From the NCBI GenBank assembly GCA_043381765.1, contig JBHJMP010000834.1, forward strand, positions 1-64,000: a stretch of 64,000 bases of DNA. Direction: 5' to 3'. This stretch comes from Collodictyon triciliatum (Eukaryota). Within the stretch, counting starts at the first letter, position 1; every line of letters starts with the position of its first letter. This document shows, one piece after another, positions 18,484-48,866 of this stretch. Below the pieces are notes generated by a model. That model did no database searches, was not told where the DNA came from, and worked only from the letters and a program-made list of their open reading frames with translations. The position numbers and the translations under genes were made by a program.

Positions 18484-18923
18484 CTAGATGCCATTTTTTC
18501 TAATTGTAGGTACTTCTTCGAAGGTATGATATGGAGGTGGTGATGGAATTGTCCATTCTAAAGTTAATGTTTCTGGAACTGAATACCAAACATTGTCTTG
18601 AACAGGTGTTGGTTCTTGTGATAAAGCATCATAAATAATATAGCAGAATAATACTACTCCTAAAGCTGAGATCATTGAACCCCAAGAAGATAACATATTC
18701 CAAGCTAAATATCCATCAGGATAATCTGGAATTCTTCGTGGCATACCGCTTAATCCTAAGAAGTGCATTGGGAAGAAAGTTAAGTTCACCCCTACGAATG
18801 TAATCCAGAAATGTAATTGTCCTAATGTTTCATTATAATGATAACCTGTTATTTTTGTAAACCAATAATAGAAACCTGCAAAGATTCCAAATACCGCTCC
18901 TAAAGATAATACATAATGGAAGT
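18484..18923 (-). CDS. cox1: cytochrome c oxidase subunit 1, exon 4
   Basis: (H)[11 protein letters not shown]...[10 protein letters not shown]. Confidence 0.96.
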
Positions 18924-19420
18924 ATAGAGTCAATCTAATCAATCAGGTGGCGGGCGAATGAAATGGGTTCATAAGGCCTTGTCGTCACTATGAAAGGAAC
19001 GCTTGGCTTCGCCTCCTCAACCCAATTAATCAGGTGCTCTCCGAACCCAACAAGACAGTTTCCCGTCATTGGGCTCTCTTAATCAAGGGGTGGAATGAAC
19101 CCCGCGTTACGACCGCGTTCAAAGTGGGAGGGCGGACCGGCTTAAGAGAATGGAAGTATCAAAAGGCTGTCGGGGGGGGATAGAGCGAAAAGCGGACCCC
19201 GTCCTTCCCATCCTTCGGGGCCGCCTTCTGAAGGGCCGTAGGAAAGTCTCGCGGCAGGAGGAGCAAAGCGAGAAGGGGGAACGAGGAGCTAAAGACGCTT
19301 ACCTCCATTTCTCCAGGCTATTCACGGGCGGGAAGAGCCTGGGGTCATGCATTGTTCCATCACTCCCTTAGCTATGACACATTCTTCGCTCGACTCCATC
19401 GATGCTACGATCCCCTACTA
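18924..19420 (-). mobile_element. 3' part of cox1 group II intron 3 (DV, DVI); upstream limit approximate
   Basis: DV GAGCCCAATGACGGGAAACTGTCTTGTTGGGTTC (about 19076-19043), DVI with bulged A at -7, ends CTCTAT. Confidence 0.88.
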
Positions 19421-19818
19421 TATACTTTGGTCCTTTCCCCCGCTCCATCATGACCGGAAAAACAGGCAACTCACTGTCAATGAGCGACCGTGCAAAGCGT
19501 GAGTGAAGTGCATTCAACGTATATAGAATGGGGACGGTGCTTGGACCAAGGGGGATGTCGCTTCGCTCTGCGCCCCTTCCCCGCGCCCTTCCGCGTTGTA
19601 ATGAGCCACCCGAATCCCGTCCCTTTTGGTCAGGTCCCGGTTATAGTGACCTTGATTGACCCCCGGCGTTGAGCGAAGCGGGCGGAGTCGTTTCACTCTG
19701 GGCAGGGAACAAACATTGAGCGAAGCAAACAACGCGAGCGAAGCGAGGGGGGAACGAATGGGAAAGAACATGTTTTTTCCCCGCTTCATTTCGCTTATCG
19801 TTGGGAGTAAGGTATGAA

Positions 19819-19891
19819 GGCGATTCTAGCTTATACGGTAGAGCAACAGGTTGTGGTTTTGTAGGGTCGGGTTCGATTCCCGAGAGTCGCC
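19819..19891 (+). tRNA. trnH: tRNA-His(GUG), G-1 encoded
   Basis: cloverleaf, anticodon GTG. Confidence 0.93.
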
Positions 19892-19986
19892 TAATCAAGG
19901 TCAGGGGACTATGAACAGTAATGGGCTTCGCCCGGAATGGGAGAAAGTGGCGTGTACGCCCGCTTGTATAAAAGGGATAATTGTAA

Positions 19987-20961
19987 ATGATTATTTATTT
20001 AATCCAAATAATACTTCTTGTTGTGCCTTTATTAATTGCAGTTGCTTATTTAACTTTAGCGGAAAGAAAAGTAATTGCTGCAATGCAATATCGAGTTGGA
20101 CCAAATGTTGTTGGAGTTTTTGGTTTATTACAACCCTTAGCGGATGGCCTAAAATTATTTTTAAAAGAAACAATAATTCCAAATAATGGTAATACTATTA
20201 TTTTCTTAATTGCGCCAATGTTAACTTTTATTTTAAGTTTAATTGGATGGGCAGTTATTCCATTTGATGAAGGTGCAGTTTTAGCTGATTTAAATTTAGG
20301 TATTATGTACCTATTAGCAATTTCATCATTATCAGTATACGGAATTATTACATCAGGTTGGTCAAGTAATTCAAAATATGCTTTTTTAGGAGCTTTAAGA
20401 TCTTCAGCTCAAATGATTTCCTATGAAGTTTCAATAGGATTAATAATAATTAATGTTTTATTATGTGTTGGTTCATTAAATTTAAGTCAAATAGTCTTAG
20501 CACAAGAATCTATTTGGTTTATAATTCCTTTATTTCCGTTATTTATAATGTTCTTTATTTCAACATTAGCGGAAACTAATCGACATCCTTTTGATTTACC
20601 GGAAGCTGAAGCGGAATTAGTAGCTGGTTATAATATTGAATATTCTGCTATGGGATTTGCCTTATTCTTTATAGGTGAATATGCAAATATAATTCTTATG
20701 TCTAGCTTATCGGTCTTATTATTTTTAGGAGGTTGGTTACCACCTTTCGGAATACTTATTTTTACTTGGATTCCGGGACCGATTTGGTTTGGTATCAAAA
20801 TTCTATTTATCTTATTCCTTTTTATTTGGGTTAGAGCAGCTTTACCTCGATATCGTTATGATCAATTAATGAGCTTAGGATGGAAAGTTTTCTTACCTTT
20901 ATCTTTAGGTTGGTTATTATTTATCGGTTCCCTTTTATTAGCATTTAATTGGTTAGGTTAA
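19987..20961 (+). CDS. nad1: NADH dehydrogenase subunit 1
   Basis: [36 protein letters not shown]. Confidence 0.99.
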
Positions 20962-21464
20962 GGCCTTCGGCCGCTAAACCGGCCGAAGGCCACATTGTTT
21001 CAAGGCCTATTTCGTTGAGGTCGAATGACCGCCCTTATCGTTGTTTTTAGTATCACCCCCTTCGGCCACTTGAATGTCGCTTCGCTCCAGTAGGTTTTGG
21101 TTGACCAGCCCGCAGCAAAGGTCATAGATAGGAAACTTTGTTTCCAGCCGAAGGACCCGGACGTTAGCAGTAGATGGAACTTACTTTCTCCCTGCCCTAC
21201 AAAGCAGCCCTACTTTGCCTCTGTTTTCTTTATGGACAACGTTGCAAAAGGGCTGTCGTAGCAAGGGATAACAGTTGAGCGAAGCGACTTTGTTTCCCGT
21301 TCGCTCGCCCCCGGCACCACCACCCCCTTTATAGGAAACATTTGGCCTTCGGCCGGTCTCTCGCTTGTTCTTGGGGGTGGAGCGAGCGAAGTGCAGCGGA
21401 GCGTCATGACCCGTCTTGCTCGCCACTTCCTCCCCTTTTATTGGGAAGGGGGAACTCTTTATAG

Positions 21465-46446: not shown

Positions 46447-47043
46447 GAAAAATATACGTCCATTTACCGATAAATCTATGCAGGGGGGTCAGTCGTTGAC
46501 GCGGGTAGCCTGTTCGCTCAACCTCTATGAATGTCACTTCGCTCGGGTACCCGGTCACTCACTTCGTTCTTCGGGCAAGGGGAGCGAAGCGTGAATTAGT
46601 ACGGGCAGCCCCGGTCATGATGACCTTGCCTCCCCCGAGCGAAGCGGGTGATGACATTTTTTTCGTGACCGGCTTCGCCTAACTAGAGAGTGGAAATATG
46701 GGCGTACGCCCGGCGAGACCCCAAGAGCGAAAATGTAATGAGCTCCCAACGCGAAGACACGGGCTCGTTTGAAGGGACAACGACAATGAAGGTCGGACCG
46801 GTTTCCCCCCCTTTATACTCAATGAAAGGGCACCCCTTCCCTCCAACATGACCGGCCCCCATCCCCCATCCCCCATCCCCTTGTGTATAAAGAGAATTGT
46901 TCATAAGGAGGTCATATTCGTTCCGTAGAGCAAAGCGAGTCAACTTTATTCACCTCCCTTACGACTTCGAGCGAAGAAAATAGAGGGCGGGTGACCAGTT
47001 TTCTCGAGCGAAGCGGGCAAGACACTTCATTGTGAACTGGTCG

Positions 47044-47115
47044 GTGGAAATAGTTCAATGGTAGAATGACATCTTGCCAAGATGAAGGTTAAGGGTTCAA
47101 TTCCCTTTTTCCACA
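47044..47115 (+). tRNA. trnG: tRNA-Gly(GCC)
   Basis: cloverleaf, anticodon GCC. Confidence 0.94.
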
Positions 47116-47210
47116 AGGAAAGAAGAGACGGCTTCGCTCGTTGGAACCACGCCTTTAGAGGTCACAAATCTAAGTTATCTCCTTTAATGGAAGGTCGATT
47201 AAGCAAAACG

Positions 47211-47598
47211 ATGATTACTCGTTGGTTATTTTCTACTAACCATAAAGATATCGGAACATTATACATAATTTTTGGTTTTTTATCCGGTATAATTGGAACA
47301 ACATTTTCAGTAATAATCAGAATGGAATTAGCATCATCTGGTAATCAAATCCTAAATGGAAATCATCAATTATATAACGTAATAGTAACAGCACATGCTT
47401 TTCTAATGATTTTCTTTATGGTTATGCCTATATTAATAGGTGGATTTGGTAATTGGTTTGTTCCAATCTTAATTGGAGCTCCAGATATGGCATTCCCAAG
47501 ATTAAATAATATCAGTTTCTGGTTATTACCTCCATCATTAATCTTATTATTAACATCAGCATTTGTTGAAGTTGGTGCAGGTACTGGTTGGACTGTCT
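47211..47598 (+). CDS. cox1: cox1 exon 1
   Basis: [15 protein letters not shown]...GAGTGWTV. Confidence 0.97.
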
Positions 47599-48541
47599 AT
47601 GAAAACGAAGCGGGTGAGCAAGGTCATAGTGACCGCCACATAAGGGTGGTTTGGACAGTATAAACTTGACTCATTGCGGGGACCCCCACGCGTAGAGTGT
47701 GTTGCCGTACTCATGACAATAAGGACGGTTGTCTGCGTCCCCTCGCTTGCATTAGGTTTTGGTTGACCCGCCCACACTCTGGGAAAGTGAGATCGGGTTT
47801 TCCCCCGGCCGCGAAGGCCTTGGTCTAACGGCTAAGTGTAATGAACCAAGCGAAGTGTGTCATAGTAATAAACGGTAACATGAGTGGGCAATCCGCAGGT
47901 TTGCTTCAAGGTCAGACATGACGAATAACCATGGTCGAAAGATGGGGTTGTCGCTCGACCGTGACCTTAAGCATTCCTCAGAGACTACACGTCAAGTAAC
48001 TAATGCAGGGGGGTTAACTGTGACCCGGCGGTAATGATTGTAGGGATCACCTCCGCCCTTCCTCTTCGCTTCTGTTGTTGGTTTTATTGAAGCAGAAGGT
48101 AGCTTCGCTCCAATGAAACGCTTGAGGAAGGAGAGAAAGCGGGGGCAATAAAACCAACAGTCGTTAATCCGGCAGAGGGTGGCTCCGCCCATTCACTCTT
48201 TGGCCGTAACCTATTCGGGGTCAGTTTTTTTCCAGTTTAGTTAATGGTATAGTCCGATCTGTATGGTAACATGCAGCGTGTAGAGATAGTACACAGCTTC
48301 GACCTATGGGGGGGGTAAACGAAGGAACGCACAGTGAAGCGTAACGCCTGTTGATAGGCCAGCTTATAACATGAGCGTTGCTTTAGGATGGACGTACGCC
48401 AAGAGCAGTCTCATCTTTCCTTCTCCCTTGCGGTCGTTACGGGAGCGAAGGACAGGGCAAAGAGCAAGGAGCTTGGAGCTATACTCCTTCGGGACTGTCC
48501 TTTCTGGGACCGTGTGTGTATGAGACTACCAACATTAAATG
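47599..48541 (+). mobile_element. cis group I intron in cox1, no ORF
   Basis: exon ends in T, intron ends in G; R CTCAGAGACTACAC, S GGTATAGTCC. Confidence 0.9.
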
Positions 48542-48866
48542 ATCCACCATTATCATCAATACAAGCTCATTCAGGTGGGGCAGTTGATTTAGCTATCTTC
48601 AGCCTACATTTATCAGGTATTTCATCATTACTAGGAGCTATCAACTTTATTACAACAGTGATAAATATGAGAGCACCTGGAGTGGGATTTGCTCAATTAC
48701 CATTATTTGTTTGGTCTGTATTCTTTACAGCTTTCTTATTATTATTATCATTACCAGTACTAGCTGGTGGAATTACAATGTTATTAACAGATCGAAATTT
48801 CAACACTTCATTCTTTGATCCTGCTGGAGGTGGTGATCCAATCTTATATCAACACCTATTTTGGTT
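48542..48866 (+). CDS. cox1: cox1 exon 2
   Basis: (Y)PPLS...DLAIFSLHL...[13 protein letters not shown]. Confidence 0.96.

Follow-up and report, generated by a model that had tools for sequence, protein, structure and literature searches.

In the mitochondrion of Diphylleia rotans NIES-3764, the cox1 gene is broken into four pieces, and two trans-spliced group II introns with a break in domain IV have been modelled for its expression (Kamikawa et al. 2016, PMC4779616). According to the main text of that study, exon ligation was demonstrated by reverse transcription polymerase chain reaction (RT-PCR), and domain V sequences lie beside the gene pieces. The study also called for mitochondrial genomes of relatives, asking if the introns were split recently and if intact versions occur (Kamikawa et al. 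2016). Among the papers listed in a literature search, none describes a second diphylleid mitochondrial genome, as judged by titles. Here, we analyse cox1 in a stretch of 64,000 nucleotides (nt) from the Collodictyon triciliatum assembly GCA_043381765.1 (contig JBHJMP010000834.1, positions 1 to 64,000), hereafter called the window. Its cox1 gene consists of four exons at three loci on both strands, and the cox1 mRNA is probably built from three separately encoded precursor RNAs in the mitochondrion of a close relative of D. rotans (CRuMs).

The arrangement closely follows that described in the main text for D. rotans (Kamikawa et al. 2016). In both genomes, the first cox1 locus lies upstream of nad2 and on the strand opposite to that of the others, the middle locus is placed between rpl2 and rpl23, and the last piece is found next to nad1, on the same strand and roughly 5 kb away. 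Both also have two split group II introns with domain V at the acceptor exons and a single cis group I intron, and they share split cox2, nad3 and ccmF genes and many palindromic repeats (Kamikawa et al. 2016).

Four exons form one reading frame, and two of their joints are seen in RNA

The initial annotation had assembled cox1 from four exons in three loci on both strands, and this arrangement is borne out by the joined frame, by the tiling of a protein profile and by RNA contigs. The exon lengths add up to the stated total (388 + 325 + 413 + 440 = 1566 nt), and the joined frame is open throughout in the standard code, encoding a COX1 protein of 521 amino acids (aa) followed by TAA. The in-frame parts of the exons tile the Pfam COX1 profile (436 positions), and the one-position gaps between them coincide with split codons. 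The guanine plus cytosine (GC) content of the exons is 31-36% as compared to 47-53% for the introns. There is no further cox1 copy in the window: a tblastn search with the joined protein returned the four segments only (E-values of 1e-61 to 3e-93), the next match having an E-value of 0.043.

Direct evidence for the ligated mRNA comes from public sequencing runs. A search with window positions 18400-24800 gave 24 runs, of which 20 contain the stretch or part of it, 17 contain half or more of its words and the record gives 14 as RNA; the matching runs are freshwater or lake metatranscriptomes stored as contigs. Four runs were compared over positions 18000-26500, namely the RNA runs X1, X2 and X4 from three studies and run X16, whose kind is unrecorded and which behaves like DNA. 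The joint between exons 3 and 4 (18923 to 24288), which skips 5364 nt and whose position is unambiguous, is present in all three RNA runs at depths of 34.7 (X1), 70.6 (X2) and 40 (X4), and absent from the DNA-like run. For instance, contig 17 of X2 (1284 nt) covers 18000-18923 together with 24288-24615. The joint between exons 2 and 3 (48866|24700) occurs in two of the three RNA runs (X1 and X2), where the 30 letters past 24700 are the reverse complement of 48837-48866. Both long-range junctions thus fall exactly where the initial annotation had placed them. Moreover, unspliced precursors with intron-exon borders occur among the RNA contigs.

Loose contig ends were also inspected, covering only part of the set (61 more exist beyond those listed). 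At 24699, loose ends of X4 and X16 belong to contigs that are at least 95% like exon 3 and then continue into a different cox1 sequence, in one case with TGA at an expected tryptophan. As this sequence differs from exon 2 of the window, these contigs were assigned to other organisms. Hence, related or unrelated mitochondria in the same lakes share a conserved stretch of exon 3. One further loose end matches a repeat copy at 41679-41708. GC-rich palindromic and GCGAAGC-type dispersed repeats fill the introns and spacers of the window (e.g. 21556-21595, 22741-22784 and 23647-23683) and are the cause of most contig breaks and false joints in the compared runs. Several odd joints (21362/23294, 22920/24145, 23314/19557 with 35 extra letters, and others) were read as artefacts of such repeats and not as isomers, as they have short sides and also occur in the DNA-like run.

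The long-range junctions are flanked by degenerate group II introns

At the end of intron 3, positions 18924-19078 match the Rfam group II intron model RF00029 (Intron_gpII) with 49 bits against a cut-off of 40. The segment 19076-19043 forms a canonical domain V, capped by a GAAA loop and carrying a 2-nt bulge (z-score -4.8). This domain lies 119 nt upstream of the acceptor, and the nucleotides in between make up domain VI: 19042-18924 folds into a long hairpin that leaves A18930 unpaired, at a distance of 7 nt from the splice site verified by RNA. The last two bases of the intron are AU. For the 3' half of intron 2, the Intron_gpII score is 35.6 bits, which is below the cut-off of 40 (E-value of 3.3e-4). 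Positions 24743-24710 take the canonical fold of a 34-nt domain V, including the GAAA loop and a bulge of 2 nt, and lie 9 nt away from the acceptor verified by RNA. A domain VI is missing from intron 2, since just 9 nt (UUAUUAAAC) separate domain V from exon 3, the last 8 of which are unpaired in the fold. Because domain V, and in intron 3 also domain VI, sit at acceptors that were verified by RNA, introns 2 and 3 are degenerate group II introns. A comparison of the intron halves with each other revealed short dispersed-repeat matches and the likeness of the two domains V only.

Intron 2 must be spliced in trans. Exons 2 and 3 are located on opposite strands and 24 kb apart; the window contains no inverted repeat longer than 75 nt, and none connects the loci of exons 2 and 3. 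RNA contigs extend from the 3' half of intron 2 into rpl2 (24671-26096 in X4). In a search for exon-binding site 1 (EBS1) of intron 2, AACCAAA at 50033-50039 was found to complement the last 7 nt of exon 2, with a chance expectation of about 0.08.

Intron 1 is of another class. It matches the Rfam group I model RF00028 at 47557-48276 with 49.7 bits, just under the cut-off of 50 (E-value of 1.1e-10), and its borders obey the group I rules, with U47598 ending the 5' exon and G48541 ending the intron. Judged by these sequence features, intron 1 is a group I intron that would be spliced in cis.

The coordinates of the cox1 exons and introns and of the genes between exons 3 and 4 are compiled in Table 1.

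Table 1 Exons and introns of cox1 and genes in the interval between exons 3 and 4 (window coordinates)
Feature	Position	Strand	Remarks
cox1 exon 1	47211..47598	+	388 nt; ATG start; Pfam COX1 profile 1-110; last base U
Intron 1, cis group I	47599..48541	+	943 nt, without open reading frame (ORF); Rfam Intron_gpI
cox1 exon 2	48542..48866	+	325 nt; Pfam COX1 113-207; RNA contigs of X1 and X2 link the last 30 nt to 24700
Intron 2, 5' half	48867..50151	+	Starts AGGGCGAC; start set by RNA junction; predicted to extend up to trnD
Intron 2, 3' half	24701..25246	-	Downstream of rpl2; domain V 24743-24710
cox1 exon 3	24288..24700	-	413 nt; Pfam COX1 209-345; both borders set by RNA
Intron 3, 5' half	22825..24287	-	Starts GGAAAAAGUG; start set by RNA joint; predicted to extend down to rpl23
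rpl23-like ORF	22824..22534	-	96 aa; repeat insertion 22741-22784
trnG(ucc)	22194..22264	+	ARAGORN; Rfam 71.8 bits
rnpB (RNase P RNA)	~22182..21455	-	CR-I, CR-V, helices P1, P3, P4
nad1	19987..20961	+	Pfam NADHdh, E-value 3.7e-127
trnH(gug)	19819..19892	+	ARAGORN; Rfam
Intron 3, 3' half	18924..19409	-	Domain V 19076-19043, domain VI 19040-18926; limit near 19409 suggested by RNA contig ends
cox1 exon 4	18484..18923	-	440 nt including TAA; Pfam COX1 347-436; joined to 24288 in all three RNA runs

Intron 3 is likely to be spliced in trans

Exons 3 and 4 lie on the same strand, and for intron 3 the choice between cis and trans depends on indirect contig data, which make splicing in trans the likely mode. 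In the three RNA runs, unspliced contigs over the 3' half cover 18896-19387 (X1), 18899-19409 (X2) and 18896-19404 (X4), whereas a contig of the DNA-like run (19177-19777) runs on. Furthermore, the depth in the bin 19420-19703 is 4.65, 1.4 and 0.64 in the RNA runs as compared to 8-16 in the adjoining bins, while X16 has a depth of 7.76 and no dip. No significance was attached to the bin 25952-26235, which has no cover in X2. These observations give a weak hint at a separate transcript beginning near 19409, 9-17 nt downstream of AGTATATAG. The initial annotation had regarded this sequence as a promoter-like motif ahead of the 3' part of the gene. It is indeed present at 19426-19418(-), yet it is no commoner than chance: with up to one mismatch, it occurs 16 times in the window as compared to 13.0 expected, and 26 of 100 shuffled sequences reach 16. 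A scan for sigma-70 promoters and terminators yielded 28 promoter-like sites as compared to 12.4 expected. This excess was given no weight because a bacterial polymerase is, to our knowledge, not expected in non-jakobid mitochondria.

Alternatively, as the initial annotation had also considered, intron 3 could be one cis group II intron of 5364 nt whose domain IV region hosts rpl23 and rnpB in sense orientation and trnG, nad1 and trnH in antisense orientation. In this case, a single minus-strand precursor would run from rpl2 to exon 4, and the rpl23 mRNA and the RNase P RNA would be released either from the intron after its excision or from precursors not yet spliced. The low-depth bin is not empty, and the contigs of X1 and X4 give some depth in all 30 bins between the exons, so that a continuous precursor may exist at a low level. 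Moreover, RNA contigs are unbroken from exon 3 via the 5' half of the intron past rpl23 to 22432 (22432-24294 in X2 and 22432-24317 in X4) and go on as far as 19755, the sole interruptions being shared with the DNA-like run and located at repeats such as the 40-nt palindrome 21556-21595. The lack of enrichment of AGTATATAG also suits a cis intron, and so does a related metagenome locus (L004, described below) that extends from the 5' half through nad1. However, the cover over nad1, trnH and trnG could be supplied by plus-strand transcripts, and a cis intron accounts neither for the contig stops at 19387-19409 in three studies nor for the 3- to 20-fold lower depth in 19420-19703, both of which are missing from the DNA-like run. 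The release of rpl23 and rnpB from the precursor would itself cleave the intron, and the model published for D. rotans is splicing in trans (Kamikawa et al. 2016). Taken together, a cis intron of this size is unlikely.

A related idea concerns the transcript and not the splicing mode. The rpl23 mRNA and the RNase P RNA may share a primary transcript with cox1 exon 3, being carried distally in the 5' half of intron 3; in its extreme form, the whole 5.4 kb would be one cis intron. We consider a shared transcript possible, but only as a tentative option. If it is true, the maturation of a ribosomal protein mRNA and of a tRNA-processing ribozyme would be physically coupled to the joining of cox1 exons. 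If the precursor of exon 3 loses the rpl23 mRNA and RNase P RNA by cleavage ahead of splicing, the intron is split in a physical sense, however it is transcribed.

A model for the assembly of the cox1 mRNA

The arrangement of exons, intron remnants and RNA contigs suggests the following route, in which three precursor RNAs would contribute to one mRNA. Precursor 1, from the plus strand, would comprise exon 1, the cis group I intron, exon 2 and the 5' half of intron 2, and would probably continue into trnD and nad2. Precursor 2, from the minus strand, would carry rpl2, the 3' half of intron 2 (with domain V but not VI), exon 3 and the 5' half of intron 3, and extend into rpl23 and probably rnpB. 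Precursor 3, also from the minus strand, would start near 19409 and consist of the 3' half of intron 3 with domains V and VI, followed by exon 4. The group I intron would be spliced in cis, whereas both group II introns would be rebuilt from associating halves and spliced in trans. For intron 3, the reaction would probably involve branching at the bulged A18930. Since intron 2 lacks domain VI, its first step would probably be hydrolytic. Given their degenerate 5' ends, both introns are likely to rely on protein cofactors.

Several observations weigh against this model. Run X16 was termed DNA-like only because of its flat depth (~4-10, with one bin of 20.6) and the missing joint. The contigs carry neither strand information nor true ends, their depths are per-contig means, and contig stops are therefore a weak hint. 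The exon 1-exon 2 junction is a prediction from the sequence. Moreover, neither group II intron starts with GUGYG: the 5' end of intron 2 reads AGGGCG (AGGGCGAC), with GGGCG one base inside the RNA-verified border, and that of intron 3, which is set by the RNA joint at 24287, reads GGAAAA (GGAAAAAGUG). Within 22830-24287, a search for stretches of 6 or 7 nt that complement the end of exon 3 and could serve as EBS1 was negative, even with G-U pairs allowed, and the Rfam models for domains 1 to 4 (D1-D4) gave no match at E-values up to 1 in either locus, neither 5' half being recognised. A search for pairing between the halves of intron 3 did not provide support either. Predictions with RNAduplex on entire halves returned kilobase-long meaningless duplexes, and the strongest complementarities between the halves are copies of the GCGAAGC-type GC-rich dispersed repeats. 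A 13-bp non-repeat helix (23381-23369 with 19128-19116; two copies in the window) was reached by only one of 100 shuffled sequences; however, 6 of 16 real non-coding control stretches match or exceed 13 bp, and thus the helix is no evidence for domain IV pairing.

The non-canonical 5' ends (AGGGCG and GGAAAA), the lack of domain VI in intron 2 and the failure to find an EBS1 partner for intron 3 or matches to D1-D4 would also fit an exon-joining process independent of the group II remnants, such as those of diplonemid or dinoflagellate mitochondria, leaving domains V and VI as relics. This is highly improbable in view of the canonical domains V that are retained 9 nt (intron 2) and 119 nt (intron 3) upstream of the acceptors, the bulged A 7 nt upstream of the 3' splice site of intron 3, the AY with which both introns end, and the first 61 nt of intron 3, which are kept at exon level in a relative. 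It is hardly credible that the joined mRNA stems from an undivided cox1 in another place, be it a nuclear copy, a subgenomic circle or a recombined isomer, and that the scattered pieces are not the gene that is expressed. In favour of such a source, the window represents 64 kb out of some 85 kb of contig with the rest of the genome outside view, and the loose ends of X16 at 24699 run into cox1-like sequence. However, that sequence is unlike exon 2 of the window and hence of another organism, X16 covers the region without the 18923|24288 joint, the RNA contigs include unspliced precursors that contain intron-exon borders, and PCR on genomic DNA of D. rotans yielded no product, as stated in the main text of the paper (Kamikawa et al. 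2016).

The interval between exons 3 and 4 encodes an RNase P RNA

The contents of the 5.4-kb interval correspond to what the initial annotation had listed, namely trnG, nad1 and trnH on the plus strand and rpl23 and rnpB on the minus strand, with the identity of rpl23 resting on weak matches to PDB entries. All three PDB matches of this ORF are uL23 or uL23m proteins, at weak E-values of 0.02, 0.027 and 0.12, and no Pfam or NCBIfam match was obtained at E-values up to 10. The ORF is situated where the D. rotans paper places rpl23 (Kamikawa et al. 2016).

The evidence for rnpB comes from conserved elements and folding. The locus contains GGAAAGUCCGG at 22114-22104 and UCCGGCUUA near 21485-21477, which we take to be the universal CR-I and CR-V elements of RNase P RNA; the 3' strand of P4 is formed by 21484-21478. 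In the minimum-energy fold of 22185-21455 (z-score -5.35), helix P1 pairs 22177-22168 with 21474-21465, accompanied by a hairpin for P3 and by P4 with its bulged U. The core segments of rnpB are identical in L004, while the interior contains indels and the similarity ends directly after P1. The locus stays under the Rfam gathering score (RNaseP_bact_a, 14.6 bits against a cut-off of 100); we know of no Rfam model for the reduced mitochondrial forms of RNase P RNA.

In the main text on D. rotans, neither rnpB nor RNase P is mentioned and four genes are counted in the interval, as compared to the five recognisable genes including rnpB in the window (Kamikawa et al. 2016). Likewise, the consulted passages of the Mantamonas preprint credit no rnpB to Diphylleia. 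As far as can be judged from the main text on D. rotans alone, rnpB may therefore be unannotated in diphylleid mitochondrial genomes. If this is truly the case for D. rotans, the mitochondrial gene set of diphylleids gains an RNase P RNA, which Mantamonas has too. Its position also raises the question whether a group II intron half can serve as the precursor of RNase P RNA.

Other split genes in the window

The cox2 gene is split as in D. rotans, with ORFs at 8684-9118(+) for the first part (E1) and 32596-32159(-) for the second (E2) within the regions 8684-11805(+) and 32159-32670(-). The exact end of E1 is probably near 9122, as suggested by GUGUG at ~9123. On the E1 side, there is an Rfam match to domains V-VI at 11717-11802 (46.7 bits, cut-off 40) and a maturase ORF at 10174-11805, which suggests that the break in this intron is downstream of domain V. 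Positions 387-461(+) are a 75-nt, 99% identical inverted copy of the sequence directly upstream of cox2-E2. The cob gene (58998-61253(+)) consists of two ORFs, 58998-59414 and 60429-61253, which match positions 2-115 and 116-189 of Pfam Cytochrome_B and are separated by about 1 kb; the interruption has no Rfam match at the gathering score. Finally, ccmF is present as separate N- and C-terminal ORFs, 12227-13384(-) and 32823-33860(-), about 20 kb apart on the same strand, as described in the main text for D. rotans (Kamikawa et al. 2016).

The window belongs to a close relative of D. rotans

The gene set of the window includes nad9, nad10, sdh2-4, cox11, tatC, the split ccmF, a cox2 gene split over both strands and rpl2 next to a cox1 piece, and its nad1 product is 97% identical to a UniRef entry with a label truncated at 'Tax=Diph'. 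Based on these genes and on the cox1 layout, the window is the mitochondrial genome of a close relative of D. rotans. It differs from the strain described by its GC content (43% as compared to 34.4%), by the length of the source contig (about 85 kb as compared to 62.6 kb) and by its set of introns; thus, it is not that strain (Kamikawa et al. 2016). For example, cob is interrupted in the window, whereas the main text on D. rotans describes no cob intron. Moreover, the group I intron is found in the first cox1 locus and the middle locus is uninterrupted, unlike in D. rotans, in which it lies in the middle locus (Kamikawa et al. 2016), as it presumably does in L004.

A metagenome scan with the rpl23-like ORF revealed eight loci (L001-L008). 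Four of them (L001-L003 and L008) are from the same lineage with at least 99.8% identity and independently assemble the window from 24410 to 19550 (99.8% for L002). The other four (L004-L007) represent a relative, with 99% identity in exon 3, 99.6% in nad1, 88% in the rpl23 protein and 79-84% in the intron, where many indels occur. These loci differ from the window mainly by indels and stop short of the 3' half of intron 3. In L004, the donor site of intron 3 is the same as in the window and the first 61 nt of the intron are about 99% identical, the remainder being 79-84% identical with indels; L004 reaches neither acceptor. The exon of L004 begins at the equivalent of window position 24546 (24546/24547), where AAGATATAGTCC...G abuts CATCATATG. 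We take AAGATATAGTCC...G to be the 3' end of a group I intron, going by the consensus. Rfam searches on L004 and L007 returned trnG only, and their 300 nt of intron gave no group I match.

The window lacks the intron of the middle locus of L004 and has one in the first locus, which indicates that group I introns are turning over between close lineages. Both group II splits are common to the window and, by the description in the paper, to D. rotans, and we thus take the splits to predate the divergence of the lineages (Kamikawa et al. 2016).

Comparison with other split-intron systems

The architecture as such is already known from D. rotans, and the known picture of group II trans-splicing is unchanged. 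The new features are modest differences, namely where the group I intron lies, the missing domain VI of intron 2, the non-canonical 5' ends and rnpB in the interval. The window adds a second lineage in which the two group II introns of cox1 are split at the same sites and the group I intron has moved. Several independent metatranscriptome studies also document the ligated cox1 mRNA in lake populations in nature, and not only in one culture.

Group II introns that undergo trans-splicing occur in nad1, nad2 and nad5 of plant mitochondria and in psaA of the Chlamydomonas chloroplast, where a third RNA, tscA, takes part in psaA intron 1. As in these genes, the exons of cox1 in the window are encoded at distant loci, sometimes on opposite strands, the intron halves would have to come together again, and the 3' exon keeps domains V and VI at its side. 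In contrast to the plant and psaA introns, the host of the window lies outside the green plants, intron 2 has no domain VI and the 5' ends are without GUGYG. Intron 3 taken by itself resembles known same-strand cases with a single split, in which several genes lie between the exons, a group II remnant sits by the downstream exon, the joint is seen in RNA-seq and the assignment to cis or trans is ambiguous. Unlike those cases, cox1 of the window has two splits, one of them across strands, and its interval includes an RNase P RNA and genes on the opposite strand. Elsewhere, cox1 is also known from separately transcribed pieces that are joined by means of another intron class, whereas here the group I intron is located in cis and the split introns belong to group II.

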